Counted from the stretch's first letter, positions 2,461-58,650 are shown. The stretch is 64,000 bases of DNA from Patescibacteria group bacterium (GCA_038062115.1 JBBTXS010000004.1:5009-69008); one strand, 5' to 3'. Notes: a model not told the origin generated them from the letters alone. Numbers and translations: made by a program.

Positions 2461-3999
2461 ATGCATCTTAAAAAAATACCTCGTTATCTAGTTATCTTAT
2501 ACACAATTGTATTCATTCTCTCTGTTATTTTTGCAATTTTTGGTTTATCAAAACAACTTACTTTCGGATTTGATCAGGCAAGAGATGCCTACGAAGCATA
2601 CGCTATTTGGCATAATCATGATTTTAAGATACTTGGACCGTCTTCAGATCTTCCAGGGGTACATCACGGTGTATTATGGTACTACCTTCTAGTCCTGCCT
2701 TATGTAATAGGATCTGGAAACCCGGCAGTTGTTGCTGCTATTTTTTTTATTCTTTCATTTCTTACAATACCTCTATGCGTTTATTTTACATATAAACTCT
2801 TTCATAATTTCCACGTTGCTTTGTTGGCATCTGTGTTATACGCTTCATCTCCTCTTTTTCAAACATTTACTCGATGGTTAGCAAATCCTCTTATCGTACT
2901 ATATATTGTTCCTTTTTTATTGTTTTTTTTGTGGAGGTATATTGATAGACAGAAAAAGACAAGCTTAATGGGTCTTTTTTTTGGGCTTCTTATACAGGCA
3001 GATTTTGCATTTGGTCTGTTCTTGATTACTTTACCTGTATACTGGTTTATTTACAAAATAAAGTCTAAATTACAGGATTTTGTATTTTTTGGCACAGGTT
3101 TTTTACTGGGAATAAGTACATACATACTTGCCGAGATACGATTTAATGGGAAAGGTATTTTAGCAATGATACATTTTTTTAACTCCAGCTTGTCTTCACC
3201 TAGATCTCCAATCGAAACGATTTTATTAATTGTTGAAAGAGTTAACGAGCTTTTATCGATAAGTATCCTGCCATTTTCTTACGCAATACTTTTTTTTATT
3301 GTCATGGTTGGCACATTTCTTTTAAAAGGTTCTAAAAATAAGCATGATAAAAATGCAATAATTTTCCTGGTGGTGTGGTTAAGTACATTTGTTCTATTCT
3401 ATCTGTTTAAGTCTGGCTTTTTACACAGCGGGTTTATGTTCGGTCCATTTCTTTTGCCAATAACAATAATTGGCAGTTATTTATTAGTGAGTACTGTTAC
3501 AAATTTTAAACTCCTCGCTGTTCTATTGGTATGCATCTTTTTGGGTCAATTCTATACTTCATATTTGTGGCTTAAAACAGAATATAGTCCTTTGTCGGTA
3601 CAGTATGGTATAAGTCTTAATCTTGAAAAAGAAATAGTTAATTATACTTATGAGCAATCATTTGGCGAACGGTTTATAATAATAACAATAACAAACCCAT
3701 TACACATAAATACTCTGTGGGCTTATCTTTATGAGATTTATGGAGAAAAGAAATATGGGTATCTTCCTTACCATGGCGGAAAAGATCAAAAAGGTTATTT
3801 AGGTAATCTTTCTCATCAGCCATTTGGAACAAAATATCGGTACATTATTATTGAGCCAACAACAGGAATCCCTGATTATTTTATACAGCAAATAATACTG
3901 GAGGAGAATAAAACGTCAGATATTATAGAAGAAAAGAAGTTTGGCCAATTTCTTGTGCAAAAACGAATGTTTAGGAAAAATAAGCATAATATAGAATGA
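2461..3999 (+). CDS. Polytopic GT-C-like membrane protein, FGFDQ family (paralog 1 of 6)
   Basis: The ORF track starts at TTG 2455. The ATG at 2461 follows the upstream TGA (2456-2458). First-loop motif FGFDQARDAYEAYAIWHNHDFKILGP...WYYLL. C-terminal soluble module with YGEKKYGYLPYHGG is shared with 13289, 14868 and 16401. Confidence 0.65.
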   Translation: MHLKKIPRYLVILYTIVFILSVIFAIFGLSKQLTFGFDQARDAYEAYAIWHNHDFKILGPSSDLPGVHHGVLWYYLLVLPYVIGSGNPAVVAAIFFILSFLTIPLCVYFTYKLFHNFHVALLASVLYASSPLFQTFTRWLANPLIVLYIVPFLLFFLWRYIDRQKKTSLMGLFFGLLIQADFAFGLFLITLPVYWFIYKIKSKLQDFVFFGTGFLLGISTYILAEIRFNGKGILAMIHFFNSSLSSPRSPIETILLIVERVNELLSISILPFSYAILFFIVMVGTFLLKGSKNKHDKNAIIFLVVWLSTFVLFYLFKSGFLHSGFMFGPFLLPITIIGSYLLVSTVTNFKLLAVLLVCIFLGQFYTSYLWLKTEYSPLSVQYGISLNLEKEIVNYTYEQSFGERFIIITITNPLHINTLWAYLYEIYGEKKYGYLPYHGGKDQKGYLGNLSHQPFGTKYRYIIIEPTTGIPDYFIQQIILEENKTSDIIEEKKFGQFLVQKRMFRKNKHNIE

Positions 4000-5981
4000 A
4001 TATTCTACAATCTTTCTTAGAAATTATATTTTTTATCATTGCTATTGTTATCTGTTTTTATCTTCCAGGAAAATTTCTGTTGGTAAAGTTAAGACTTCGC
4101 TTGAATTCCCCAGGAGATTTATTCCCTCCTTTTATTATAGGCATAATGTTGTTTACGTTAATTTCCTATATTTTTTCTTGGTTAAAATTAGAGATTATAA
4201 TTTTACCTTTACTTCTAGTGACTGACATTTTTGTTATTAAGAGTAAGAAATGGTTTCCACACAGCATAGAAAAGCGCCATCTAATTCCTATTTTTATTGT
4301 ATTTATTTTGGCATTTATTTTTAGTCTTAGCATGCTAACGTCTGGTATCTATGGTGATACGATTAAATATGGAAGGGATGATTTATGGCATCTTGCATTA
4401 ATCAATGAACTAAAAGCCAATTTCCCTCCTGATAACCCTGGATTTGCCGGAGTTCCGTTAAGAGGCTACCACTTTTTTTATAATTTTATACTGGCTAAGA
4501 TTAGTAATATTTTTTCCGTTTCTCCTCTTTCATTGTATTTTCACTTCTTTCCATTATTCATAGCTATTTTATGGGGGTTGGGTGTGTACGAGCTTATGTA
4601 TACATGGAGCAAGAAAATATCAATTGCTCTTTGGGCTGTTTTTTTGACAATGTTTGGGGGCAGCTTTGCTTTTATCTTATTCTTGCGAGGTCATGGTGGT
4701 TTAAGTTTGGATAGTGCGTTTGGAATACAACAACCAGCAACTGCGCTTATTAATCCACCCTTTGCAATATCGATTATTATTGTTATTTCTGCACTTTTTA
4801 TAATGCATCAATATATAGAATCCAAAAAGAGTGCTTGGCTTGTTCCTTTGTCTATATTTATTGGTTTAGCAACAATGTTTAAGGTTTATGCTGGTATTAT
4901 TCTTGTTGGTGGCTTTATTTTGTTTAGTGCTATTGAGGTTATTCATAAAAGGAACTACTTAATACTCGTATCGCTATTTGTTTCAGGAATTTTCTTCGTT
5001 GTCACATACGGAATCTTTAGGGATCCGTCATCTACTCTTATTTTTGCGCCTCTTTGGGCACCTCACAGCGTGCTTACAGATAATATGCCATGGTACGGAT
5101 ATGCAGAAAAAATGTATACATACACAAAGCTTTCTGTCATAAAGGGAATAGTGGAGACGGAATTATACGCTTTATATGTATTTTTGTTTGGCAATTTAGG
5201 TACAAGATTAATAGGATTGTTATTATTGCCAGTACTTATTTTAAAAGAACATAAAACTCCTTCCTTTTTTGCTCTTACTGTTTTAATAATGACTTTGATT
5301 TCTATTTTGACACCATTGTTTTTTATTCAATCTGGAAAAGTGTTTGAAATTATACAGATGGCGTGGTATTTTTTGTTTTTTATTTCTTTGTTTGCCGCAT
5401 TTGGATTTCATGCGTTGTTTAATTTTGGCTATAGTAAGATATTAAAAATCGTTTTATTTGCCATAGTTTTAATACTAACATTGCCATCAGCTTATGAGAA
5501 CTACAAAGGTTACTTTGCTTACTTTCGTTCTCAAGGCGCTCAATTATCGGATCCTTACTTCAAAGCAATGCAATTTTTAAGTTCAGAAAGAAACTATAAG
5601 GATACTGTTTTAGAAATTCCCGATAAAAATATCTCTGCAACGAAAAGAGACCTAATGAGTTGGTACGGGTGGTCGTCGCCGGCAATTGTGGCGTTTGGGA
5701 ACAAAAGAGGTTATTTAAATAATGAATATATTGATTTTGCAGGGGTAGATATTGCCCCCAGAATTGACTTTGTCCGCAAAATTATTTTACTTAATAAGAT
5801 GTTCACAAGTAATGCTTTGGAATATACAGACCTTCAAAAAGAAGTAAAGCGGGGACTAAAAGAATATAAAATTTCATTTATTTATAGTCCTTATCCCTTA
5901 TCAGCTCTTGATGCTATAAGCAACGTTGATAAGGTATTTGAGAATCAAGTTGCTACAATATATAAAGTGGATGTTAAATAA
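3996..5981 (+). CDS. Polytopic membrane protein, FPPxNP family (GT-C-like, function unknown)
   Basis: 661 aa with many hydrophobic segments. Loop motif WHLALINELKANFPPDNPGFAGVPLRGYHFFYNF is paralogous to HLSLVRSFSWGDNFPVESPFFPGTPLAYHYYFDLL in ORF 26440-28041. ATGA overlap at 3996-3999. Confidence 0.55.
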   Translation: MNILQSFLEIIFFIIAIVICFYLPGKFLLVKLRLRLNSPGDLFPPFIIGIMLFTLISYIFSWLKLEIIILPLLLVTDIFVIKSKKWFPHSIEKRHLIPIFIVFILAFIFSLSMLTSGIYGDTIKYGRDDLWHLALINELKANFPPDNPGFAGVPLRGYHFFYNFILAKISNIFSVSPLSLYFHFFPLFIAILWGLGVYELMYTWSKKISIALWAVFLTMFGGSFAFILFLRGHGGLSLDSAFGIQQPATALINPPFAISIIIVISALFIMHQYIESKKSAWLVPLSIFIGLATMFKVYAGIILVGGFILFSAIEVIHKRNYLILVSLFVSGIFFVVTYGIFRDPSSTLIFAPLWAPHSVLTDNMPWYGYAEKMYTYTKLSVIKGIVETELYALYVFLFGNLGTRLIGLLLLPVLILKEHKTPSFFALTVLIMTLISILTPLFFIQSGKVFEIIQMAWYFLFFISLFAAFGFHALFNFGYSKILKIVLFAIVLILTLPSAYENYKGYFAYFRSQGAQLSDPYFKAMQFLSSERNYKDTVLEIPDKNISATKRDLMSWYGWSSPAIVAFGNKRGYLNNEYIDFAGVDIAPRIDFVRKIILLNKMFTSNALEYTDLQKEVKRGLKEYKISFIYSPYPLSALDAISNVDKVFENQVATIYKVDVK

Positions 5982-8451
5982 TGCGCATTTTGTTTCTTTT
6001 TAAAAAAATGAATGCCAATATTGCGATAACTGATAATATGGAGACGGTAGAGCCAATCTTAAAAGAAATTGGTTCATATTTGAATGTTACTTCGTGATTT
6101 CCCTTAGGTAAATATATGCTTCTAAACGTATAGTCTGCGCGATAGATTTTGGTTTCTTTATTGTCGACATATGCTTTCCACCCTGGATAATAGTTGTCAG
6201 AAAGAAAAAGCATTTGTGGCATGTTAGTTTTTGTTATTATTTCAATTTTCTGAGGTTCATATTGGGTAATTTTTACTAATGAATCAGGAGAGACTTCTTG
6301 TAAGTCAATCATGTTTTGTGGAAACAAAAATAACTCAGAGGGTTTTTCTTCTAAAACAATATTTGATGAAAGATCAAAATTCGCGTCAAACAGCAAGTCT
6401 GCAATTTTTTGGGGATTATTTTGAATGTGTATTCTGCTTGTTAAAAAAGCTCTGGGAAACGCTTTGGAATATTCAATGCCAGTCCAATTATTATGTTGCC
6501 AAACGGGATGAAAAAGATTTCGAGGAAATTTATTTGCACCACTATTTTTTGGATTATGATCATCAAAGTAAAGTATATATTTTATTCCAAGAAGTGAAAG
6601 TAAACGAATTTTTCTATTATCCTCAAAGGGATTCTCTTTATCTCCTAACTCTGATAGTCTTGCCTCAACTCGAGGTATGTCGTTTGCGATCTTTCCGTTA
6701 TTTTTAACAGCAAAGATAAGCTCTCCGTATCGTCTTGGGAAAACTGGATTTACTCCTTCGGCAGAGTAAATCCGGCCATATGTTGATATGTTTTCTTGCA
6801 TGGGTTGACGCAGGGAGAGAAATCTGTCTAAAGAATTTCTTGATTGTAAAAAAGAGATTACAGGGTTTTTTGGATAGAGAAATTGAGGGTCGCCAATTAC
6901 GATATATTTATTAAGAAAATAAAATTGTCCGAATAGCGTCAGAATAATAATTACGATGAAAGACAGATTGGTTATCTTTTTGGTTCGTAAAAAAATAAAG
7001 AGAAAAGAAAGCATAATAAAGGGCAAGACGAGGTTTTTTAGAAGGACAAGAATATTCATTTTTGTTGGAGAGGATCCATGTCTAATTACATAATTATTCA
7101 AGTCTCTAAAAAATGTAGCATGGCTATAGTTCAATAACAGAAATCCGTAGAGAGCGATCAATAATAGAGTTATGACTAAAACAAAAATAATTAACAGCAT
7201 AAGCCTTAGGTCTTTTTCTCTTTTTTGTTTTATTAGTGTAGATATGCCAAATGCGGAAAGTGTGGCAACTGAAAAAGTTGTTAGAAAAAGAATTCTACTT
7301 GGTAAGAATGTCGGAAGTAAAGGAAGTGGAAGTTGAAAAAACCATCTTGTAAACGGTGAATCGAGCGTTAGAAAAAAAGATAGAAGGAGAGCTCCAATAA
7401 AAAAACGGATAACAGGATTTATTTTTGCTTTAATGCCTGCATATATGGCAAAGACAGATGGAATAAGTCCCGCATAAAGTATAGTTTCTCGATAGAATCC
7501 ACGGCCAAAAAAATTATATGCTCCTGGATTGCCAAAGATATCTGGTACAAAAGCATTAAACAAATGCGTGACGGGAAGAAGGTAGCCTTCAAATAAATAC
7601 CAAACCGACGATGTACTCCTTGGAGATTCTAAAAAAGCTTCTATAGATGGGAGCAATTGTATAGCAGATAGGCAAAGAGAGAAAACATAGATGCCAATAA
7701 TTTTAATTAAATAGGTTGGAGGAAGAGATAGACTTCTAATTCGAAAAATACTATAGAAGAAGGAAAATATGAATATATAAAAAGTTACTTGGAAGAATCC
7801 GGCAAGAAAAGAACATGTAAGGGCAATAATTGCTACAAGATAGTAGAGGTTTTTTTTGGTATTGAGATATCCTTCAATGCCAAAAAGGCAAAGCGGAAGC
7901 CATAAGGCGGCTTGACCGACAACGACATTTTCTTGGCTCCATATAATCATGAATCCAGAAAATCCGAAAGCTATTGCGCCAAGCCAAACAGCAGGTCTTG
8001 CCAAGCGAAAAAGGCTTAAAAAAAGGTACATAAAAAATGTTGCCATAATTGGCTGAATAAATAGAAGAAGTTGCCATGCATAAGTTTGTGGCAGGAAAAA
8101 ATAAAGAATGTTTAGTGGATAAAATATGGCAGACTGAAAATCTGCAAGAAAAGGAGTGCCTGCAAAAACATAAGGATTCCAAAGTGGAATGATTTTTTTT
8201 GCCAGCATCTCGTTTGTAAATGTTCTTTCTGGGTAAAATATTCGGATCTGATCATCTCCTATTGGCTTATGGGGTATACCGGCTTCCCAGCCTGGAAATT
8301 TCTCTGTTTTCCAAGGAGAATAAAATTGAGCAAGGAAATTTGATGGAAAAAGAATTTTTCCGTTGAAAACGACCTGTCTATATATGATTAGTATGCCAAT
8401 AGCTATAGAGAGCAATATAAAAAAATCTGTATAATGCCAATTGCGCTTCAT
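5974..8451 (-). CDS. YfhO-family membrane glycosyltransferase-like protein
   Basis: 825 aa. N-terminal region (IFYPERTF...WNPYVFAGTPFLADFQSAIFYPLN) and C-terminal beta-rich tail (YYPGWKAYVDNKETKIYRADYTFRSIYLPKGNHEVTFKYEP) resemble YfhO proteins. It is one of the few minus-strand genes in the array and is convergent with 3996-5981, overlapping it by 8 nt. Confidence 0.7.
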   Translation of the reverse strand: MKRNWHYTDFFILLSIAIGILIIYRQVVFNGKILFPSNFLAQFYSPWKTEKFPGWEAGIPHKPIGDDQIRIFYPERTFTNEMLAKKIIPLWNPYVFAGTPFLADFQSAIFYPLNILYFFLPQTYAWQLLLFIQPIMATFFMYLFLSLFRLARPAVWLGAIAFGFSGFMIIWSQENVVVGQAALWLPLCLFGIEGYLNTKKNLYYLVAIIALTCSFLAGFFQVTFYIFIFSFFYSIFRIRSLSLPPTYLIKIIGIYVFSLCLSAIQLLPSIEAFLESPRSTSSVWYLFEGYLLPVTHLFNAFVPDIFGNPGAYNFFGRGFYRETILYAGLIPSVFAIYAGIKAKINPVIRFFIGALLLSFFLTLDSPFTRWFFQLPLPLLPTFLPSRILFLTTFSVATLSAFGISTLIKQKREKDLRLMLLIIFVLVITLLLIALYGFLLLNYSHATFFRDLNNYVIRHGSSPTKMNILVLLKNLVLPFIMLSFLFIFLRTKKITNLSFIVIIILTLFGQFYFLNKYIVIGDPQFLYPKNPVISFLQSRNSLDRFLSLRQPMQENISTYGRIYSAEGVNPVFPRRYGELIFAVKNNGKIANDIPRVEARLSELGDKENPFEDNRKIRLLSLLGIKYILYFDDHNPKNSGANKFPRNLFHPVWQHNNWTGIEYSKAFPRAFLTSRIHIQNNPQKIADLLFDANFDLSSNIVLEEKPSELFLFPQNMIDLQEVSPDSLVKITQYEPQKIEIITKTNMPQMLFLSDNYYPGWKAYVDNKETKIYRADYTFRSIYLPKGNHEVTFKYEPISFKIGSTVSILSVIAILAFIFLKRNKMRII

Positions 8452-8528: not shown

Positions 8529-10229
8529 ATGAACGTAACGAAACCAAAAATTATACTGGTAGTAATTATTATAATAGCTGCTTTTCTGCGTTTTTATCAA
8601 TTAGGTAATAATCCTTCTTCTCTTACTTGGGATGAGGCGGCATGGGGATATAATGCTTATTCTTTAGGGATTGATGGAAAAGATGAGTTTGGTAGATTTT
8701 TGCCTCTTGATTATTTAGAGTCCTTTGGCGATTTTAAGCCCCCCTTGTATGCATATTTAGATATTATTCCTATCAAAATTTTTGGTTTAAATGAGTTTGC
8801 TACTAGATTTCCTTCGGCATTCTTTGGAGTATTGACAGTTTTGGTAACTTATTTTTTGGTAAGGAGAATATTTTCTTTTTCTCGAAATTCACCCCCGAGG
8901 AGTCGCTTTGCAACATCTCGGGGGTGGCCGAATGGGCTCCCCCGAGGTGAAAGTGTTGCGTTATTGTCTGCTTTTTTACTGGTTATTTCTCCTTGGCATA
9001 TTAATTTATCTCGAGCTGCGTTTGAGGCTAATGTTGCATCTTTCTTTATTGTTGCTGGAGTGTGGTTATTTCTAGCCGCAATTCAAAATAAGAAATGGCT
9101 TCTTTTGCTTTCTGTTTCTTCTTTCGTTCTTTCTATATACACATTTAATACGGCAAGAATAGTATCTCCAATTCTTTTTATACTTTTATCGCTAATCTTT
9201 TGGAAAGCCTTATGGAGAATCAAATACCAAGTCGTGGGAGCAACAATTGTTGGAATAGTTTTAATCCTTCCAATTGCGAGATTTTTGGTTTCGCCTCAAG
9301 CAAGTCTTAGGTTTAAAGAAGTTAATATATTTTCAGATATCGAAGTTATTGAAAGGACAAATCAAGAAATTGAAAATGACAAAAATATTATGTGGTCTCG
9401 CATACTTCATAATCGTAGGTTTGCATACGCAGTTGAATATATTAAGCACTACCTTGATAACGTAAGCCCTTCTTTTTTATTCCTCAAAGGAGATGGTAAT
9501 CCAAAATTTTCTACCCAGGATGTAGGACAAATGTATTTATGGGAGTTGCCATTTTTTATAGGTGGGATTTTATTGCTTTTTAGAAGAAGAGAAGGTAATT
9601 GGTGGATTGTTCCGTTATGGTTACTGATTGGCATCGTTCCGGCGGCAACTGCACGCGAGACTCCGCATGCTTTACGTATTGAGACAACATTGCCAACTTT
9701 TCAAATTATCGTTGCTTATGGCATCTATCAAGCAGTATCAAGTATTAAGTATTATGTATTAAGTAAAAACAAAAGATACGTTATACTTAGCTCTTTTATC
9801 TTACTACTTTTTGTGAATTTTCTATATTACATACATGGATATTATGCTCACTACCCTCGTGAGTATTCAGGAGAATGGCAGTATGGCTATAAAGAATCAA
9901 TAGAATATGTCAAGATGGTTCAGGATAAATACGATCAGATACGAATCACTTCAGCAATGGGTAGACCATATGTCTATTACGCATTTTTTACTAAGACTTT
10001 TCCTGAATCCTTTAGAAAAACTGCGATTGTTAAACGAGACGCATTTGGATTTGTTACGGTTTCAGGATTTTTAAAATATCGTTTTGCTGACAATCTAAAC
10101 TTCATTAAGGAAAAGACAAAAAAGGCACTGTACATAGATATTCCAGGAAGAGTTCACCCAAAAGGAGATATATTAAAAAGATTTTATTTGTTAAATGGGG
10201 CAGAGGTGCTTGTTGCTTATAGACTCTAA
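8529..10229 (+). CDS. GT39/PMT_2 (ArnT-like) lipid-carrier-dependent glycosyltransferase, paralog 1
   Basis: 566 aa. SLTWDEAAWGYNAYSLGIDGKDEFGRFLPL...FGDFKPPLYAY is the typical first-loop DE motif region of GT39/ArnT-like enzymes. Also ISPWHINLSRAAFEAN. Confidence 0.75.
   Translation: MNVTKPKIILVVIIIIAAFLRFYQLGNNPSSLTWDEAAWGYNAYSLGIDGKDEFGRFLPLDYLESFGDFKPPLYAYLDIIPIKIFGLNEFATRFPSAFFGVLTVLVTYFLVRRIFSFSRNSPPRSRFATSRGWPNGLPRGESVALLSAFLLVISPWHINLSRAAFEANVASFFIVAGVWLFLAAIQNKKWLLLLSVSSFVLSIYTFNTARIVSPILFILLSLIFWKALWRIKYQVVGATIVGIVLILPIARFLVSPQASLRFKEVNIFSDIEVIERTNQEIENDKNIMWSRILHNRRFAYAVEYIKHYLDNVSPSFLFLKGDGNPKFSTQDVGQMYLWELPFFIGGILLLFRRREGNWWIVPLWLLIGIVPAATARETPHALRIETTLPTFQIIVAYGIYQAVSSIKYYVLSKNKRYVILSSFILLLFVNFLYYIHGYYAHYPREYSGEWQYGYKESIEYVKMVQDKYDQIRITSAMGRPYVYYAFFTKTFPESFRKTAIVKRDAFGFVTVSGFLKYRFADNLNFIKEKTKKALYIDIPGRVHPKGDILKRFYLLNGAEVLVAYRL
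8884..8956 (+). repeat. GC-rich palindromic insertion, in-frame inside the GT39 CDS
   Basis: cacccccgag (8890-8899) pairs perfectly with ctcgggggtg (8917-8926). A third arm, ctcccccgagg (8937-8947), repeats the first. Strongly GC-rich against an AT-rich background. Translated as SRNSPPRSRFATSRGWPNGLPRGESV in a loop where GT39 homologs, as I recall them, run almost directly from ...LV.RIF to .ALLSAFLL. Confidence 0.8.
9733..9765 (+). repeat. Heptanucleotide repeat block (AAGTATT units) inside CDS
   Basis: cagtatc aagtatt aagtatt atgtatt aagta, translated SSIKYYVLS. Reverse complement of the AATACTT units at 18557 and 29936. Confidence 0.9.
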
Positions 10230-13288: not shown

Positions 13289-14824
13289 ATGAAATATAAC
13301 ATATTCTATAAAACAATAGATTTTAAGTTTATTGCCTACATACTACTTTTTGTTGCACTTGCCAGTGGTGTAATTTTGAGGTCGGTAGAGGTTGTGAATG
13401 GAAATTTTCTTTTTGGATTTGATCAGGGAAGAGATTATCTTGCGGTAAAAAATATTGTCGTAGATCACAAGTTAACTCTCATTGGATCAGAAATAGGAGC
13501 TGGTGTTGCTGGATTTAGCGGTATTTTCCATGGACCTTTTTATTATTATTTACTAGCATTGCCCTTCATAATTTTTAAGGGAAATCCTTATGGAGGAATG
13601 ATATTAATGTTTGTATTAGGAATTGCAACGATTCTCCTTTGTTATATCATTGGAAGGAGGCTCTTTGGGACAAAAGTTGGATTGTTGGTAGCCGCCATAG
13701 TTGCTGTCTCTCCGCCTTTTATTGCATATTCAAGGTTTGTTTGGAACTCTAACCCTTCGCCATTATTTATTTTGCTTGCTTTTTATTTCGTATTCCTCTT
13801 TACTAAAGAAGGAAAAACGAAATACCTTTTTTGGGCTTCCTTTTTCTCAAGTTTTGTATATAATTTTCAATTGGCCATGGCAATTCCTCTGTCTATAGCT
13901 CTTATTATATATTGCGTATTAGTAGTTAGCCTTAAACAAATTAAGCAGTATGCAGTATTGTTTCTAGGAACAATACTTGCTTTTTCACCTATGTTGTTGT
14001 TCGAAATTCGTCATGGATTTCAAGCGATAAAAGGACTATTAATTTATATGTTTAATCATCCAGAAACTGCAACGACGCAAACATTTTGGGTATTGCTTTT
14101 ACGTGATCATCTGTTGATGTTCTTTGATAATTTTTTGTCTACATTTCCTTCGCAAACCATTAGTTCCTCAATAGCAGTTATTACGATTCTTCCTGTGGTT
14201 TTTTATTTTGTCCTGAAAGAGAAGGATAAACAAAGAAAGAAATTTATTTTGTATCTTTTGATTCTCATGCCCGTTACATTTATTGTTTTAGGATTCTTGA
14301 GAAACTTTGTATACAATTATTATCTCATTCATCTTAATCTTGCCTACATATTTTTAGTCGTTTTTGCCATTGTGTCTACTTTCAAAGCACGACATAAGAT
14401 AGTAAATGGCATAGTTATAGGATATGTAGCAATATTGTTGTTTTCTGGGATCTTTTCTAATATTCGAACGTTTTATTACGATATTACCGACTATGGCGGA
14501 ACCCATAAAATTAGAGGAAAGCTCGATGCGATAGATCATGTCTATAAAAACGCTGATGGAAAACGATTTGGGCTACTGGTATTTAGTCCCCCTATATATA
14601 TCTACCCCTATGATTATCTTATTTCTTGGTATGGAAAGAAAAAATATGGATATGTTCCACATCAGGAGAAAAAAGGACTTGTGTATCTTTTGATTGAAAA
14701 AGACACATCAAAACCATGGAGCTATCAGGGTTGGCTCGAAACAGTAATAAAAGGAGGCGATGTTATAAATACAGAACAACTTACAAATGGTTTTATTATA
14801 GAGAAACGTTTATTTAAAGAATAA
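13289..14824 (+). CDS. Polytopic GT-C-like membrane protein, FGFDQ family (paralog 3)
   Basis: 511 aa. FGFDQGRDYLAVKNIVVDHKLTLIGSE...GPFYYYLL. C-terminal module DYGGTHKIRGKLDAIDHVYKNADGKRFGLLVFSPP...WYGKKKYGYVP...GWLETVIKGG. Confidence 0.65.
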   Translation: MKYNIFYKTIDFKFIAYILLFVALASGVILRSVEVVNGNFLFGFDQGRDYLAVKNIVVDHKLTLIGSEIGAGVAGFSGIFHGPFYYYLLALPFIIFKGNPYGGMILMFVLGIATILLCYIIGRRLFGTKVGLLVAAIVAVSPPFIAYSRFVWNSNPSPLFILLAFYFVFLFTKEGKTKYLFWASFFSSFVYNFQLAMAIPLSIALIIYCVLVVSLKQIKQYAVLFLGTILAFSPMLLFEIRHGFQAIKGLLIYMFNHPETATTQTFWVLLLRDHLLMFFDNFLSTFPSQTISSSIAVITILPVVFYFVLKEKDKQRKKFILYLLILMPVTFIVLGFLRNFVYNYYLIHLNLAYIFLVVFAIVSTFKARHKIVNGIVIGYVAILLFSGIFSNIRTFYYDITDYGGTHKIRGKLDAIDHVYKNADGKRFGLLVFSPPIYIYPYDYLISWYGKKKYGYVPHQEKKGLVYLLIEKDTSKPWSYQGWLETVIKGGDVINTEQLTNGFIIEKRLFKE

Positions 14825-14852
14825 ATCCAGCACCGAATCGGTGCTGGATAAA
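14822..14852. repeat. 23-nt palindromic element flanked by TAAA direct repeats (intergenic copy)
   Basis: TAAA tccagcacc-gaatc-ggtgctgga TAAA. With the flanking a/t the perfect stem is 10 bp (14825-14834 pairs with 14840-14849). The left TAAA contains the stop codon of 13289-14824. No U-tract follows. Confidence 0.85.
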
Positions 14853-14867
14853 GCGCAATCCAAATCT

Positions 14868-16400
14868 ATGAAAAAATTGTTTATTTTTTTTGGGTTATTG
14901 ATTATATTAGCAATTGGTTCTTGGCTTAGGTTAAGCGGAATTATAAGTAATTCTTTTGCATTTACTTACGATGTAGGGCGAGATATGCTTGCTGTTGAAA
15001 ATATAGTGGTTAATCATAAAATTACTCTTATTGGGCAAACAACAGGAGTAGAGGGTATTTTCTATGGGCCTTGGTGGTACTTTATATTAAGTATTCCATT
15101 TTTTATCTTTTCCGGTAACCCGCAGGGAATTGCATTTTTTATGGCGTTTATTGGAATTATCACTATTTTCCTGAGTTACATTGTTGGGGAAAAGATAGGT
15201 GGAGTTTTTTTAGGAATAATTTTTTCTGCTTTTATTAGCATTTCTTCTATAATGGTTTTGTCTTCTTCCCAAATATGGAACCCAAATCCAATACCCTTTT
15301 TTGTCTTACTTGTCTTTCTGATGCTTTATATGCTCTCTTTTGACAGTAAACCCCGCACCCACGGGGTGCGGGGTAAACCTAAAACTTCTAAAGCAAAATA
15401 TCTTTTCCTACTTGGTTTGCTCTTGGGCATTACCATAGATATGGAAATAGTATTTGGAATTCTGCTTTTTTTGGGTACTTGCATATCTTTAATTCTTATT
15501 TTTAGAAAAAGATTGAGAATAAAAGAAGTACCTTTTTTTGCCTTAGGATTATTATTTATTTTTTCTCCACGGATTATTTTTGAGGTTCGGCATGATTTTT
15601 TGATGACCAAGACATTTATTAACGCTTTTAGCAATGGATTCATGTCGCCTAAGCACTTTTCTATTTTTGACGCACTTTTTAGCAAACTAGGCTCTTTATT
15701 TAACGTATGGAATGCTACATTAGCAGGACAAAACAGCACAGTTGGTTTTATTTTGATAGCCTTCGTTTCTTTATGCTTGCTATTTTTCTATAAAAAGATA
15801 GAGGATACACAGAAACAATTTATGCAGACTATTTTTATTGTAATTGTAATTTTTTTAATAGGCTTTATTTTTTTAAATCAGGCTATTTGGCCTCATTATC
15901 TTGTTGGTATTCCAGTTTTTTATATTCTTCTTGTAAGCTTAATCATTAATACAACAAAGATTGTCTTAAAAAAATCTTGGGTTATTTTCTTTATATTGCT
16001 TGTTTTATTTTGGATTAATCTAAACCCTATGCAGGTTTTAGACAATATTAGGAAGCCTATATGGGAGGGAAATGCCGCAGTATATCGTAATCAAGTTGCT
16101 GTTATTGATTATGTTTTTAATGATGCAAAAGGCAAAGATTTTAAATACATTGTTTATACCCCAGCCGTACATGATTATACTTACAGGTACTTGTTTTCTT
16201 GGTATGGAAAGAAAAAATATAGCTACATCCCTGGCCAAAAAAACACTGGATTATTTTATGTAATACTGGAGCCTGACTATGATTTGCCGTTTCGATTAAA
16301 AGATTGGTTAAACGATAGAGAGGACGATGGAACAATACAAAAAGAAAAGATAGTAAAAGGAGGGATAACAGTTCAGACAAGGATATTGAACATTGAATAA
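14868..16400 (+). CDS. Polytopic GT-C-like membrane protein, FGFDQ family (paralog 4)
   Basis: The track start GTG 14841 lies inside the hairpin, so the ATG at 14868 (MKKLFIFFGLL) is preferred. FTYDVGRDMLAVENIVVNHKITLIGQ...GPWWYFIL. C-terminal ...YLFSWYGKKKYSYIP. Confidence 0.65.
   Translation: MKKLFIFFGLLIILAIGSWLRLSGIISNSFAFTYDVGRDMLAVENIVVNHKITLIGQTTGVEGIFYGPWWYFILSIPFFIFSGNPQGIAFFMAFIGIITIFLSYIVGEKIGGVFLGIIFSAFISISSIMVLSSSQIWNPNPIPFFVLLVFLMLYMLSFDSKPRTHGVRGKPKTSKAKYLFLLGLLLGITIDMEIVFGILLFLGTCISLILIFRKRLRIKEVPFFALGLLFIFSPRIIFEVRHDFLMTKTFINAFSNGFMSPKHFSIFDALFSKLGSLFNVWNATLAGQNSTVGFILIAFVSLCLLFFYKKIEDTQKQFMQTIFIVIVIFLIGFIFLNQAIWPHYLVGIPVFYILLVSLIINTTKIVLKKSWVIFFILLVLFWINLNPMQVLDNIRKPIWEGNAAVYRNQVAVIDYVFNDAKGKDFKYIVYTPAVHDYTYRYLFSWYGKKKYSYIPGQKNTGLFYVILEPDYDLPFRLKDWLNDREDDGTIQKEKIVKGGITVQTRILNIE
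15347..15377 (+). repeat. 23-nt GC-rich palindromic element flanked by TAAA direct repeats, in-frame inside CDS
   Basis: TAAA ccccgcaccc-acg-gggtgcgggg TAAA (arms 15351-15360 and 15364-15373). 23 + 4 = 27 nt = 9 codons, translated within DSKPRTHGVRGKPKT. Paralogs have a much shorter loop here (TKEGKTKYLF, LQGSGKFFLL). Confidence 0.85.
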
Positions 16401-19604: not shown

Positions 19605-20030
19605 CAACCAATTTCGGGAAATGTCGCAGAATCTTGCATAGAAATAAAACTAAGAGAGGCAGGATTAAAAAAAGATCTAAATTACAAACGAAGGTATAAG
19701 CGGAGCGATTTTACATTTTTTCATCCCGGTTTTAAAAGTTCTAGTGATATTCATAGGGTAGAAGTTAAGAATGTTGCCCTAAGAGAGAGGGGTGTTAGAG
19801 GATTATCATTTGACGGTGATAGTATGGTAGGGTTTTTTAATGAGGCTAAAGAATTTACTAAAGAGACTGTTAAAATTATAGATAAGTATTGTCGTAAAAC
19901 TGGAGGCTACTGTTATGTTCCGCCTGAAATCTTGAAAGAAATATTATCAAAACACAAAGCGAAAAGATTTAAATCAAACGACGAATTTGTAAGCGATATG
20001 AATCAATTTGTGAAATCAGGAATTATTTAA
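19605..20030 (+). pseudogene. Open frame without a credible start, convergent with the DNA methyltransferase; possible truncated restriction-endonuclease remnant (only the last 68 codons follow an ATG)
   Basis: The frame is open from 19605 (after TAG 19602-19604) to 20030: QPISGNVAESCIEIKLREAGLKK...HRVEVKNVAL...MVGFFNEAKEF... The first ATG is at 19824. An E-x-K-like string (ESCIEIK) sits at the extreme N-terminus with no upstream PD/D element. The 3' end overlaps the MTase 3' end by 15 nt. Confidence 0.3.
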
Positions 20031-20978
20031 GGGTGGTCTCCAAAAATCTAATATGTATTCAAACGTTGTTCCGAGTGTAATATAATTTGAAGGCCAACCA
20101 AAAATCCCGACGCCATTAACTAAATTCCTTCTGTCCCAAATTATAGTATTTCTAAGTTTGTATCCTGCTCTTTCGATCTCCTCGATTACATATATGTGAA
20201 GTGGAACCCTGTTATTTTCCCACCAAAGGTCAGTAATATTAATTACGCAATGGGCTTTGGGCTTGTGGAGCGGTAGCAATTTTTTGTAAATCTCTCCTAT
20301 TGCTTTTGCAAATTTTTTTGGCTCCATAGTCCCGAGATCTCTTGGATTACTTGAGTATTGTTGAACACTATCGTAATGTTCGTTTTTACGTTGATCTCCT
20401 CGTATGCTTTTGTTTTTTCTTTTTCTATTTAGCATGTTGGCATATGGAGGAGAAGTAACAGAGAGTGAAACAGTGTTTTTGTTGAGATAGTTAGAAATAT
20501 TGATGGCATCGTCACATATTGTTATTTGTTTGGTATCATCATAGATATCCAATTGTGATAGTCTTGTATTTGCATAATCAAGATATTTTTGACTTAGGTC
20601 AAAACCCACAGCGTTTCTTTGCAAGTCTTTTGCAGCGACCAAAGTTGTTCCAATGCCTACAAATGGATCCAGAACAAGCTCTCCCTTGTGAGTGAATATT
20701 TCTATACACTTGGTCGGAAGGTCTATAGGAAATACTGCTGGATGGATTTTTTTGTCTCGAACATCTCTTTTCTTGTACGCAAATTCCCATATAGCGACCT
20801 GATTTTTCATCCATTGTTTAGCGTCTAAACAGTTTATATGATTTGGTGGACAGGAACATGCTTTTTCGTGTCCTATGGAAAGTTTTAAAGAAGTTTTATC
20901 TTTTTTAGTTTTATATTTTTTAATATCACTTCCAAGTTCCATGTATGTTGGAACAGTTATAAGGTTAGGCATAGACAT
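20016..20978 (-). CDS. DNA methyltransferase, N4-cytosine/N6-adenine (N6_N4_Mtase type) with permuted motif order
   Basis: 320 aa. HPAVFPIDLPTKCIEIF...LVLDPFVGIGTTLVAAKDLQRNAVGFDLSQKYLDYANTRL (AdoMet motif I region) precedes VSLSVTSPPYANM (catalytic motif IV). A typical IIWDRRN-type block lies near the C-terminus. Confidence 0.8.
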   Translation of the reverse strand: MSMPNLITVPTYMELGSDIKKYKTKKDKTSLKLSIGHEKACSCPPNHINCLDAKQWMKNQVAIWEFAYKKRDVRDKKIHPAVFPIDLPTKCIEIFTHKGELVLDPFVGIGTTLVAAKDLQRNAVGFDLSQKYLDYANTRLSQLDIYDDTKQITICDDAINISNYLNKNTVSLSVTSPPYANMLNRKRKNKSIRGDQRKNEHYDSVQQYSSNPRDLGTMEPKKFAKAIGEIYKKLLPLHKPKAHCVINITDLWWENNRVPLHIYVIEEIERAGYKLRNTIIWDRRNLVNGVGIFGWPSNYITLGTTFEYILDFWRPPLNNS

Positions 20979-21243: not shown

Positions 21244-21355
21244 ATGACTGGGTCATAATTGTCATTTCGAGCTTGCCGAGAAATCTCCTTCAAAGAGATT
21301 CCTCGACTCGCTACACTCGCTCGGAATGACAAATGAGTATTTATGTCCCAGTCAC
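21244..21355 (+). mobile_element. MITE copy A (about 112 bp) with terminal and internal inverted repeats and a 9-bp target-site duplication AATTAGCAT
   Basis: Direct repeats aattagcat at 21235-21243 and 21356-21364. Termini are atgactgggtcataa and the reverse complement of gtgactgggacataa. Internal IR gtcatttcgagc/gctcggaatgac. About 90 percent identical to 37915-38027. The right TSD abuts ATG 21365. Confidence 0.85.
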
Positions 21356-24653: not shown

Positions 24654-24797
24654 TGTCATTTCGAGCTTGACGGGTTACCGTACGGTAACCCGTCTTGTCG
24701 AGAAATCTTTATCACCGTAGTTGCGAGAGATCCCTCGGCTTCGGGAGGCACTGTCTGGTGTATCCCTTCGCTCGGGATGACAGGTTATAAGGCGAGC
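24654..24797 (+). mobile_element. MITE-family variant carrying a nested 24-26-nt perfect palindrome
   Basis: The 5' end tgtcatttcgagcttg matches MITE A/B. Then comes gacgggttaccg-ta-cggtaacccgtc (24669-24694) bracketed by cttg...cttg, then tcgagaaatc as in A/B. The 3' end gctcgggatgacaggttataaggcgagc resembles the 3' end of the CDS-embedded copy at 30306-30327. Confidence 0.7.
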
Positions 24798-37914: not shown

Positions 37915-38027
37915 ATGACTGGGTCACAATTGTCATTTCGAGCTTGCCGAGAAATCTCCTTCAACGAGATTCCTCGACTCGCTCACGCTCGCTCGGAATG
38001 ACAAATGGGTATTTATGACCCAGCCAT
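37915..38027 (+). mobile_element. MITE copy B (about 113 bp) with a 9-bp target-site duplication ACTAATATT
   Basis: Direct repeats actaatatt at 37906-37914 (containing the flippase stop TAA 37908-37910) and 38028-38036. Termini are atgactgggtcacaa and the reverse complement of atggctgggtcataa. Same internal structure as copy A. Confidence 0.85.
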
Positions 38028-51626: not shown

Positions 51627-52559
51627 ATGAAAGTATTGGTGACGGGTGGTGCTGGATTTATCGGAGGGCATTTAGTTTTTGAATTAATAAAACATGGCGC
51701 ACAAGTTTTCGTCATAGATATAGAAGTTAACCCCAAGTCATTTTTTGCCTTACAGAATTTATCGTCACATGCTTCGCTTGATATCGTGGATATTAGAGAT
51801 AAGGAAAAAGTATCTAGGTACTTTGATAAATCCAGTTTTGATTATGTTTTTCATTTGGCGGCGGAGCCTATTGTTGAAGAGGCGTTTATAGATCCTTATT
51901 CTGCATTTGAAACAAATATAATGGGAGCTGTTAATATTCTTGAGGCGGTTAGGAAACACAAAGAAATAAAAGGAATTATTGTTGCATCTTCGGACAAGGC
52001 ATACGGGAAAACAAAAAAAGCATATACAGAAGAATCACCTCTTAGGGGAGATCATCCATATGACGTTTCGAAGTCGTCTATGGATCTTATTTGTCAGTCA
52101 TATTTTACAACGTATAACCTTCCCATTGTAATTACTCGTTTTGGAAATGTATATGGGGAAGGAGATTTGCATTTTAATAGAATTATCCCCGGTATTTGCA
52201 AGGCGGTGATAAAAAATGAAGTATTAGACATAAGAAGCGACGGGACTTATATTAGGGATTATTTATATGTAAAAGACGTAATAAATGGTTATATATTTTT
52301 ATTAAAGAATTTTGAAAAAATAAAAGGAGAAGCTTTTAACTTTTCATCAAGTGATACGCTTTCAGTTGTTGATGTTGTTAAAAAAGCAGAACAAATATTA
52401 AGAGTAAAAATCCCTTATAAAATACTAGATATTGCCCAAAACGAGATTCCATACCAACATTTAAATGATGCTAAGATCAGAAAACTTGGCTGGAAATCAG
52501 AATACGATTTGGATGCAACTTTAAAATCTACTGTTCAGCGGTATAAACTCGTATTATGA
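51627..52559 (+). CDS. CDP-glucose 4,6-dehydratase-like extended SDR
   Basis: The track start is TTG 51612; ATG 51627 gives MKVLVTGGAGFIGGHL. YDVSKSSMD (YxxxK) and RFGNVYGEGDLHFNRIIPG. It lies next to rfbF. Confidence 0.65.
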   Translation: MKVLVTGGAGFIGGHLVFELIKHGAQVFVIDIEVNPKSFFALQNLSSHASLDIVDIRDKEKVSRYFDKSSFDYVFHLAAEPIVEEAFIDPYSAFETNIMGAVNILEAVRKHKEIKGIIVASSDKAYGKTKKAYTEESPLRGDHPYDVSKSSMDLICQSYFTTYNLPIVITRFGNVYGEGDLHFNRIIPGICKAVIKNEVLDIRSDGTYIRDYLYVKDVINGYIFLLKNFEKIKGEAFNFSSSDTLSVVDVVKKAEQILRVKIPYKILDIAQNEIPYQHLNDAKIRKLGWKSEYDLDATLKSTVQRYKLVL

Positions 52560-57606: not shown

Positions 57607-57717
57607 ATGAAAAATGCACAAGAAAAAAAATAGTAGTGACAGGAGGAGCAGGATTTATCCAGCACCAGCCTTATAGTTTGGTTTTAAAACAAAAATTAAT
57701 ATTAAAGTATGGATAAA
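57607..57717 (+). pseudogene. Remnant of an SDR epimerase 5' end (first ~18 codons), frameshifted in an A8 run
   Basis: atgaaaaatgcacaagaaaaaaaaTAG. Shifting by one nt reads ...KKIVVTGGAGFI, followed by unrelated sequence. It parallels MDKRRKKILVTGGAGFIG of the intact gene 100 nt downstream. Confidence 0.55.
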
Positions 57718-58650
57718 AGAAGAAAAAAAATTCTAGTTACAGGTGGTGCTGGATTTATTGGCTCGCATATTACAGAGCTTCTTTGCGACAAAGGATATAC
57801 GGTTGCTGTTGTTGACGATTTGCGTTTTGGCTATAGATCCTTTGTAGATAAACGCGCCAAGTTTTTTCGGATTGCCATTGAAGATTCAGAAGCTATAGAA
57901 AAGGCACTTGCGGGAGTAGATGTTGTAATGCACCTTGCCTCATCAAGCATTATTACTTTCTCCTATGAGCACCCGATTGAATACTTTGAAAATAACCTTC
58001 TCAATGGCATAAAACTGCTTGAGGCAATGAGAAAAAAGGGTGTTGGGAAAATAATTTATTCCTCAACTTCATCTGTCTATGGAGAACCCAAAAAAGTTCC
58101 AATTAAAGAAGATAATCCTACAAATCCATTGAATGCATACGCTGCATCTAAACTTGCTTTTGAACAGGCATTAATTTCTTATTACCATTCATTTGGCATA
58201 GAAAGCGTTTCATTACGTTACTATAATGCTTATGGCCCAAGGGATGAGCAAAAGCCAAGAACTCGTGCTGTACCTATGTGGATTGAGGCTATTCTAGAAA
58301 ATAAACCCATTCCGTGGCATTGGCAGGGAAGACAAGTTAGAGATTATATATACGTCAAAGATGTAGCTCAGGCACATTTTGATGTCCTAAATCTTAAAGG
58401 AATTTACTGTTTTAATATTGGTTCAGGTAAAGGAGTTGTGATGAAAGACGTATTGAAAACACTTGAAAAGATTGTAGGAAGAAAACTCAAGACGCAAGAT
58501 TTAGGAGAAAGAAAAGGAGATCCAATGAAATCTTTTGCTGATATTTCAAAAATTAAAACAGCTGTGGGTTGGATTCCCAAAGTAACGCTAGAGGATGGAT
58601 TAAGGGAAACATTTGAATATTACAAAAATAAGAAACATGAAAACGATTAA
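57709..58650 (+). CDS. NAD-dependent sugar-nucleotide 4-epimerase (GalE-like SDR)
   Basis: 313 aa. ILVTGGAGFIGSH, SSTSSVYG, YAASKLAFE (YxxxK) and LRYYNAYGP. Confidence 0.7.
   Translation: MDKRRKKILVTGGAGFIGSHITELLCDKGYTVAVVDDLRFGYRSFVDKRAKFFRIAIEDSEAIEKALAGVDVVMHLASSSIITFSYEHPIEYFENNLLNGIKLLEAMRKKGVGKIIYSSTSSVYGEPKKVPIKEDNPTNPLNAYAASKLAFEQALISYYHSFGIESVSLRYYNAYGPRDEQKPRTRAVPMWIEAILENKPIPWHWQGRQVRDYIYVKDVAQAHFDVLNLKGIYCFNIGSGKGVVMKDVLKTLEKIVGRKLKTQDLGERKGDPMKSFADISKIKTAVGWIPKVTLEDGLRETFEYYKNKKHEND

Follow-up and report, generated by a model that had tools for sequence, protein, structure and literature searches.

Two GC-rich palindromes in a 64,000-nucleotide (nt) stretch of DNA from a Patescibacteria group bacterium (GCA_038062115.1, JBBTXS010000004.1:5009-69008; the whole stretch is called the window below) are real, recent 27-base insertions of a family of miniature hairpin mobile elements. 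Both copies are insertions relative to their orthologues, in which the corresponding empty sites hold a single TAAA. The family recurs at non-homologous sites, within single genomes as well as across phyla, its stems co-vary such that pairing is conserved rather than sequence, most of its copies lie in frame inside genes, and its longer members share their ends with the 23-nt form. It is, apparently, a family of miniature hairpin elements that had not been described, and its hosts are groundwater bacteria from several phyla.

The initial annotation of the window had pointed to two 23-nt palindromes with TAAA on both sides, sharing 15 of 23 positions, the first of which uses the stop codon of gene 13289-14824. 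The sequence confirms these points. Read directly in the window, copy 1 (14822-14852) is TAAA TCCAGCACCGAATCGGTGCTGGA TAAA and copy 2 (15347-15377) is TAAA CCCCGCACCCACGGGGTGCGGGG TAAA; the cores are each 23 nt long and identical at 15/23 positions, and a TAA stop occupies 14822-14824. In both copies the direct repeat in fact measures 5 nt (ATAAA in copy 1, GTAAA in copy 2), and thus extends to RTAAA. Including the inner A..T of the flanks, the stem of either core is perfect over 11 bp and closes in a 3-nt loop, and the DNA folding energies of -13.1 (copy 1) and -14.9 kcal/mol (copy 2) were equalled by none of 200 shuffles. Chance is no explanation for the two copies, and the suspected enrichment was borne out: the pattern TAAA-N4-GCACC-N5-GGTGC-N4-TAAA occurs twice against 0.00 expected, both matches being the copies themselves, and GCACC-N5-GGTGC occurs twice against 0.01 expected, with no match besides these two. 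The bare TAAA-N23-TAAA spacing was at its chance level in the window (26 found, 28.7 expected) and perfect 10-bp hairpins of any composition were mildly enriched (3 found, 0.93 expected), so the signal lies in the specific GC-rich palindrome together with its flanks. The core of copy 1 is the commonest variant of the family, identical to copies in other Levybacteria genomes (L033, L057, L073, L298 and L312) and recurring exactly at unrelated sites of other genomes. Since the stem variants of the two window copies differ, neither was derived from the other. The copies are 525 bp apart in a window with ~1,500 TAAA or TTTA sites; by a rough estimate, two random insertions in 64 kb would fall this close ~1.6% of the time.

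Evidence that the palindromes were inserted came from proteins as well as from DNA. A protein search with gene 14868-16400 gave 36 orthologues at 65-83% identity, and all 36 are without exactly nine residues, PRTHGVRGK, reading ...FDS-KPKTSKAKY... at the site of copy 2. In the window the in-frame reading is AGT AAA CCC CGC ACC CAC GGG GTG CGG GGT AAA CCT, which encodes S-K-PRTHGVRG-K, with the core and one TAAA supplying the nine residues. The extra residues fall in a short basic loop between two hydrophobic segments of the host protein; an AlphaFold model, of low confidence (pLDDT 46.6) and usable for secondary structure at most, puts residues 158-174 between helices. At the DNA level, four orthologous contigs with conserved gene order gave the empty sites with a single TAAA that the initial annotation had suggested looking for, at both positions. 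The copy 2 site reads GACAGTAAACCTGAA / GACGGTAAACCTAAA in orthologous DNA, and GACAGTAAACCTGAAACT in contig L001 and GACGGTAAACCTAAAACT in contig L002 correspond to the window minus 27 nt. The copy 1 site reads gaaTAAAacgaaatcc; it is gaaTAAAacgaaatccaatttATG in contig L006 versus gaaTAAA[23 nt]TAAAgcgcaatccaaatctATG in the window, and the core is missing from the orthologous spacers of both L006 and L001. At the empty copy 1 site of L001 (3350-3375) we also noted TAAAGCAATAAAGCGA, an 8-nt tandem near-duplication that starts with TAAA and is probably due to slippage rather than being an excision footprint. Both copies are present in independent NCBI and ENA assemblies of the same aquifer population (Hainich: Hain_H51, Hain_H41; contigs <=375 kb), and a filled/empty polymorphism was not seen at the window sites, the other assemblies of this population carrying both copies. 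In the ENA gene calls the gene that hosts copy 2 starts at a GTG at 14841, inside copy 1, which turns the 510-aa product from the ATG at 14868 into the 519-aa P0241; this start is an annotation artefact caused by the element. Within 10 kb either side of the window, the source genome holds no more copies.

Further copies had been anticipated elsewhere, and ~45 were found with TAAA flanks. We scanned 185,579 species-representative genomes with TAAA-N4-GCACC-N5-GGTGC-N4-TAAA and obtained 74 matches, 45 of them in the family and 29 outside it, the latter, from various bacteria, being for the most part common terminator-like hairpins rich in A (AAAAGCACC..GGTGCTTTT). The family consensus is [T/C]CC[A/C/T]GCACC-N5-GGTGC[T/G/A]GG[A/G] between TAAA repeats. 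About 20 family copies were in a dozen metagenome-assembled genomes (MAGs) of Levybacteria, with a maximum of 5 per genome, and other copies were in MAGs labelled Gottesman-, Magasanik- and Paceibacteria, Omnitrophota, Nitrospirota/Thermodesulfovibrionia, Elusimicrobia, Zixibacteria, Planctomycetia, Terriglobales and Gammaproteobacteria. More copies came from a metagenome scan with TCCAGCACC-N{3,7}-GGTGCTGGA, in which no flank was imposed (122 matches). At gap 5 on contigs of <=48% GC, 8 of 11 matches had TAAA/TAAA (or TTTA/TTTA) flanks, one had TGAA/TGAA and one TTTA/TTCA; such flanks were found at none of the 16 gap-5 matches on GC-rich contigs and at 1 of 95 matches with other gap sizes. 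Matches in a viral collection did not rise above background, favoured no gap size and, at gap 5, lacked TAAA flanks, and PLSDB plasmids and GenBank phages were devoid of copies, so a viral, plasmid or phage reservoir was rejected. Two Levybacteria genomes carry a different GC-rich perfect palindrome, CCTGCCTGCCGGCAGGCAGG (L013 1697-1716 and L020 256-277), which may be another hairpin family.

The compensatory stem differences noted for the window copies turned out to hold across the family, as covariation at pairs 1/23 and 4/20. Among the 45 family copies, pair 1/23 is T-A in 23, C-G in 20 and unpaired in 2, and pair 4/20 is A-T in 21, C-G in 12, T-A in 5 and something else in 7. The four outer pairs, at positions that the search pattern leaves free, are all complementary in 32/45 copies as against 0.4% by chance. 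Several stem variants, each self-complementary, are found in a single genome (MFOC01). Because the stems co-vary and self-complementary variants co-occur in MFOC01, it is pairing rather than sequence that has been kept. At the centre of the core, 23 copies have A and 14 have T.

In 47 of 48 distinct copies the 4-mers on the two sides are the same. Where the flanks differ from TAAA they still agree with each other (TGAA twice, and TTAA once, at a long member), and these duplicated TGAA and TTAA flanks argue for a repeat that is a copied target and not part of the element. The repeat often runs to 5-7 nt on one side alone. In 37/48 copies the last base of the element is found again just before the left TAAA (A with TCC.. 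elements, G with CCC.. elements), and longer repeats are GGATGAA in L284 and GATGAA at an inner copy in L241, giving a range of 4-7 nt.

Most copies are found inside genes. Since the insertion consists of a 23-nt core and one 4-nt flank duplicate, it adds exactly 27 nt, or nine codons, and the frame logic that had been put forward on this basis was upheld, with 36 of 48 distinct copies (~75%) lying within open reading frames (ORFs) of >=150 aa, 18 on each strand; 3-4 of the 48 come directly after a TAA stop, like copy 1. Host genes include those for MurC, RecG, PNPase, topoisomerase I (TopA), ComEC, PBP1A and GlgB. Compared with solved structures, there is a ~9-residue gap in MurC at the element peptide FTPHRSGAG, before GISVTGTHGKTTT, a ~9-residue gap in RecG at the element peptide FTQHHHGAG, and in PNPase a gap of 5 residues, where the sequence is variable. 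As many as 42/48 copies are free of stops in the five frames other than the TAA frame; for random cores of matching composition the figure is 22%. A stop arises only in the frame in which TAA already was the stop codon of the host.

The elements also come and go. In an alignment of 28 full-length RecG relatives, the element is present in L058, P0246 and P0247 (where it has decayed) and absent without a scar from the other 26. By distance, the empty P0245 is sister to the filled P0246, with L058 outside both, and because an empty lineage is thus nested among filled ones, either precise loss or repeated insertion must have occurred at this one site. The contig L258 (Ga0209515_10013545) carries three members within 8.5 kb, at 3561-3591, 5278-5351 and 6673-6703, in a replication-origin region (dnaN-dnaA | rnpA-yidC-jag-rnhA); they occur in both orientations, and one follows directly upon the rnpA stop.

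Longer members of 66-129 nt (L052, L241, L258 and L262) have the same ends and flanking duplications, with an extended 13-bp repeat GCACCTTT..AAAGGTGC, and one of them contains a nested mini copy with its own TGAA duplication. Because the longer members share its ends, the 23-nt form is a minimal derivative, two ends alone, of a family resembling MITEs (miniature transposable elements with inverted repeats). A tRNA-derived interior of the long members was rejected, as no tRNA called by ARAGORN overlaps any element.

Taking these observations together, we think it probable that the palindromes are hairpin- or cruciform-dependent, non-autonomous mobile elements that insert at (R)TAAA with a 4-nt stagger and duplication. 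The minimal unit would be the 23-nt hairpin palindrome [T/C]CC[N]GCACC-N5-GGTGC[N]GG[A/G], leaving (R)TAAA on both sides after insertion. An enzyme encoded elsewhere would recognise the folded hairpin or cruciform, folding would bring together both ends of so short an element, and cutting of the target with a 4-nt stagger would yield the flank duplication. A palindrome bounded by short direct repeats should also be easy to lose cleanly. Several points weigh against this interpretation. Neither a transposase nor an autonomous copy with these ends turned up in the window, in its ~20 kb of flanks or in the loci examined. Copies are few, with 2-3 in the ~84 kb covered of the source genome and no more than 5 strict copies per genome. 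A conventional paired-end transposase complex needs a longer duplex than one of 23 bp. The one-sided match of the -5 base (37/48) is not predicted by a plain 4-bp duplication and hints at homology or base-pairing between element end and target, and one member, in L262, has TGAA on its left and TAAA on its right. Finally, there may be mis-binned contigs among the taxonomic labels of the MAGs.

The search for the missing machinery covered several places. Among 30 ORFs scanned directly, from the first 43.2 kb of the window, there was no transposase or recombinase: all were envelope-glycan genes except for one DNA methylase and ORFs without a Pfam match. Precomputed Pfam annotation of L322, which overlaps the window at 59.8-64 kb, and of L320, which overlaps it at 1-11.7 kb, likewise contained no transposase or recombinase. 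An autonomous parent was rejected because no paired ends 0.6-5 kb apart were found in the loci examined or in viral contigs, where all matches to the extended end TAAAYCCNGCACCTTT were due to chance or to coding sequence (KGAGF codons), none with a partner end. If the origin were that of a classical MITE, the parent would be an insertion sequence with TCCAGCACCTTT ends.

A rather unlikely alternative is that the hairpin moves as single-stranded DNA by means of an HUH/Y1 enzyme (IS200/IS605 TnpA- or RAYT-like) or a hairpin-recombining tyrosine recombinase. The unit would then be core plus RTAAA (27 nt), inserted 3' of a single-stranded RTAAA, with the apparent duplication made up of target and element end, and excision would be precise. 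Such a course would suit a tiny, perfect and co-varying hairpin that is too short to bend, and an asymmetric, AT-rich target of 4-5 nt, which is the usual style of IS200/IS605. It would also account for a -5 base that equals the 3' terminal base of the element in 37/48 copies and on one side only, for L262, whose left flank is an off-target TGAA and whose right flank is TAAA, and for the clean absence from a nested RecG lineage. However, replication-strand bias was absent (24 to 26 when set against local GC skew), copies in L258 lie in both orientations on a single replichore beside the origin, the window too has both orientations, three copies have identical flanks other than TAAA, the central base (A 23, T 14) behaves as if the core inserts either way, and no Y1 gene was present in the loci examined. 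Apparent opposite leanings of the two stem types toward one gene strand largely track the frequency of the target on each strand. It is because of the duplicated non-TAAA flanks, the lack of strand bias, the two orientations and the central A or T that we favour a staggered cut. Copying without any enzyme is quite improbable. In that scheme the hairpin stalls replication, a nascent RTAAA end switches template by microhomology, copies the core with RTAAA and returns, and clean loss follows from slippage between the direct repeats, by which palindromes in such a position can be deleted. The variable repeat length of 4-7 nt (as in L284 and the inner copy of L241) and the distance of just 525 bp between the window copies are in its favour, but 5-nt microhomology is very common (~1,500 TAAA/TTTA sites in the window), and yet one specific palindrome family has been copied across phyla, for which a vehicle would be needed; the window copies, moreover, are different stem variants, neither of them made from the other.

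That the palindromes do not move at all, being functional hairpins (terminator, RNA stability, regulatory or protein-binding) or ancestral palindromic coding sequence, is very improbable and largely refuted. Copy 1 lies right after a stop codon, its minus strand scores as terminator-like, and the 29 non-family matches of the genome scan were mostly terminator-like too. An intrinsic terminator was nevertheless rejected, as copy 1 is followed on the coding strand by TAAAGCGCAATCC, with no T-run, only the minus strand is terminator-like, and most copies are intragenic with orthologues that are without them. About 75% of copies lie in ORFs on either strand, and copy 2 is absent from 36/36 orthologues. 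As a known RNA family the hairpins were likewise rejected, Rfam giving nothing at gathering thresholds and nothing meaningful at permissive ones, and as CRISPR repeats too, with a single copy per site and no regularly spaced arrays. An assembly or sequencing artefact, such as an adapter or chimeric hairpin, is scarcely credible, given the same insertions in independent NCBI and ENA assemblies, the compensatory variants, the target duplications and the frame kept within conserved genes.

A bolder proposal goes beyond the staggered-cut element that we favour, and we regard it as possible, if short of probable: a 23-nt hairpin would move within and between several phyla in a translation-neutral manner (27 nt, stop-free in the usable frames, TAA coinciding with the host stop), by a structure-specific mechanism without a link to a known transposase family, and would be among the smallest known forms of mobile DNA. 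If this were true, further perfect palindromes, such as the CTTG one at 24666-24697, may be inserted with 4-nt duplications by the same machinery, and such insertions would serve in general to add nine-residue loops and at times to remodel genes, as at an epimerase start, in the streamlined genomes of the candidate phyla radiation (CPR).

The coordinates of the two copies and of related features are collected in Table 1. The window has 32% GC, its proteins match NCBI entries for 'Patescibacteria group bacterium', nearly all of its genes are on the + strand and serve cell-envelope glycan synthesis, and a row of GT-C/PMT_2-type membrane glycosyltransferase paralogues surrounds both copies. It contains no tRNAs and no Rfam matches.

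Table 1. Hairpin copies, host gene and related features in the window
Feature	Position	Strand	Description
Left TAAA, copy 1	14822..14825	+	TAA is the stop of glycosyltransferase gene 13289-14824; preceding A gives ATAAA
Core, copy 1 (TCCAGCACCGAATCGGTGCTGGA)	14826..14848	+	intergenic, 19 nt 5' of the ATG at 14868
Right TAAA, copy 1	14849..14852	+	duplicated target
Left TAAA, copy 2	15347..15350	+	within codons AGT AAA; preceding G gives GTAAA
Core, copy 2 (CCCCGCACCCACGGGGTGCGGGG)	15351..15373	+	CCCC..GGGG stem variant, in frame in gene 14868-16400
Right TAAA, copy 2	15374..15377	+	duplicated target
Host gene of copy 2	14868..16400	+	GT-C/PMT_2-like membrane glycosyltransferase paralogue, 510 aa; orthologues 498-503 aa
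Possible third, long or rearranged member	57654..57757	-	+ strand reads TTTA TCCAGCACC [78 nt] GGTGCTGGA TTTA
CTTG palindrome	24666..24697	.	CTTG, perfect 24-nt palindrome ACGGGTTACCGTACGGTAACCCGT, CTTG
~100-nt intergenic inverted-repeat element, three copies	21246-21345, 24655-24781, 37917-38020		GTCATTTCGAGCTTGCCGAGAAATC ... GCTCGGAATGAC, outer GACTGGGTCA..TGACCCAG

The possible third member is a 100-nt insertion relative to the orthologues L326 and L327, and it lies at the TTTA of the GGAGFIG (Rossmann motif) codons of an epimerase gene (57709-58650). The start of this gene has been remodelled (57607-57757): the ancestral N-terminus MKNAQEKK... is now a frameshifted upstream remnant, matched by the MKN.Q... 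start of the orthologues, and the new start MDKRRKK... lies within the insert. The right arm matches the motif codons GGT GCT GGA TTT A exactly, and right arm plus flank, GGTGCTGGATTTA, are the GAGFI codons, which are found again at 51648-51660. The origin of this feature is ambiguous because its interior holds a diverged second copy of the 5' end of the gene; a hairpin insertion with a later recombination patch is one possibility.

The CTTG palindrome has the same anatomy as the TAAA hairpins with another sequence and target. The 28 nt lie in a ~100-nt repeat and are missing from both of its sister copies (GAGCTTG|CCGAGAAATC), and no other copy was present in the loci examined. In a general palindrome scan of the 64 kb, identical 4-mers on both sides were found only at the two TAAA hairpins and at this palindrome. 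The ~100-nt intergenic inverted-repeat element is a second MITE-like family and has no Rfam match. ORF 8529-10229 contains a 57-nt GC-rich multi-hairpin segment (8892-8950) with three mutually complementary arms, CCCCCGAG / CTCGGGGG / CCCCCGAG, which adds 19 residues relative to the orthologues L003 and L006 and was without other copies in the loci examined. On the - strand, at 20016-20978, a lone DNA methylase ORF (N6_N4_Mtase), its Pfam profile matched in the C-terminal part only, stands in the otherwise + strand glycan cluster.

Genomes of CPR bacteria, or Patescibacteria, are tiny and gene-dense, and we know of no abundant repeat elements in them. An insertion of exactly nine codons that is open in every usable frame shows how selfish DNA may persist with almost no non-coding space, and it is a concrete source of lineage-specific loop insertions in MurC, RecG, TopA, PNPase and ComEC. 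Filled and empty sites offer a practical marker of strain divergence in aquifer metagenomes, and the element causes annotation errors, as with the GTG start inside a hairpin. Its size challenges standard models of transposase synapsis, and the enzyme, if it were found, could turn out to insert DNA by a new activity specific to hairpins.

Regarding known systems, the initial annotation knew of no described 23-nt TAAA-duplicating element, and our full-text literature searches agree, yielding no TAAA-flanked 23-nt element and no MITEs in Patescibacteria. Rickettsia palindromic elements (RPEs) are palindromic selfish DNA found in frame in coding genes, where they are tolerated as an extra peptide (PMC10969869). 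They are, however, ~100-150 bp long and confined to Rickettsia (PMC10969869), whereas the present element is 23+4 nt long and is found in Patescibacteria and under other phylum labels. The likeness to RPEs that had been drawn at the outset therefore stands for behaviour, namely in-frame ORF insertion, and fails for membership on account of size and hosts. We know of no defined short target duplication in RPEs.

Repetitive extragenic palindromes (REPs) are dispersed, non-autonomous hairpin palindromes, 20-40 nt long, that bear a conserved tetranucleotide as a tag and are thought to be mobile as single-stranded DNA hairpins, with a minority inside genes (PMC3733652; PMC3116915); the tag is GTAG or CGTC at one end (PMC3733652). 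The element resembles REPs and REPINs as a small, dispersed, non-autonomous, tagged hairpin. Unlike REPs, which are overwhelmingly extragenic and imperfect, often number hundreds of copies and form inverted pairs beside a RAYT gene, it has TAAA (RTAAA) on both sides and no GTAG/CGTC, is a perfect palindrome, is ~75% intragenic and has a low copy number, and there was no RAYT gene in the loci examined, L258 with its three copies included. With IS200/IS605 elements and their hairpin-only derivatives it shares hairpin ends and a specific, asymmetric, AT-rich tetra- or pentanucleotide target, to which RTAAA conforms; those elements make no duplication and have a strong lagging-strand bias, whereas here the non-TAAA flanks are duplicated and strand bias is absent, the TGAA/TAAA member of L262 being in keeping with insertion without duplication.

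Yeast mitochondrial GC clusters are short, GC-rich, palindromic and mobile, lie in an AT-rich genome with short, AT-rich flanking repeats and are sometimes in frame in genes; being organellar and eukaryotic, with another sequence and length, they are mentioned with no relation implied. Nearest in size are the small dispersed repeats of cyanobacteria reported by Elhai and colleagues in 2008, which are said to be mobile, ~21-27 nt long, in some cases hairpin-forming and nested in other repeats, and for which reportedly neither a TAAA duplication nor a 27-nt in-frame habit was described; sequence and host phylum differ. To MITEs (Correia/NEMIS, ERIC, Nezha) the family is alike in terminal inverted repeats, an apparent target duplication, non-autonomy and size variants with the same ends, its inverted arms being 9-11 bp long and, in the long members, 13 bp. 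Known MITEs, at roughly 50-500 bp, usually have a traceable parent insertion sequence. In the present family the dominant form differs, with no parent in the loci examined and a size, at two repeats and a 1-5 nt centre, far below that of MITEs, while the 66-129 nt members resemble ordinary small MITEs.

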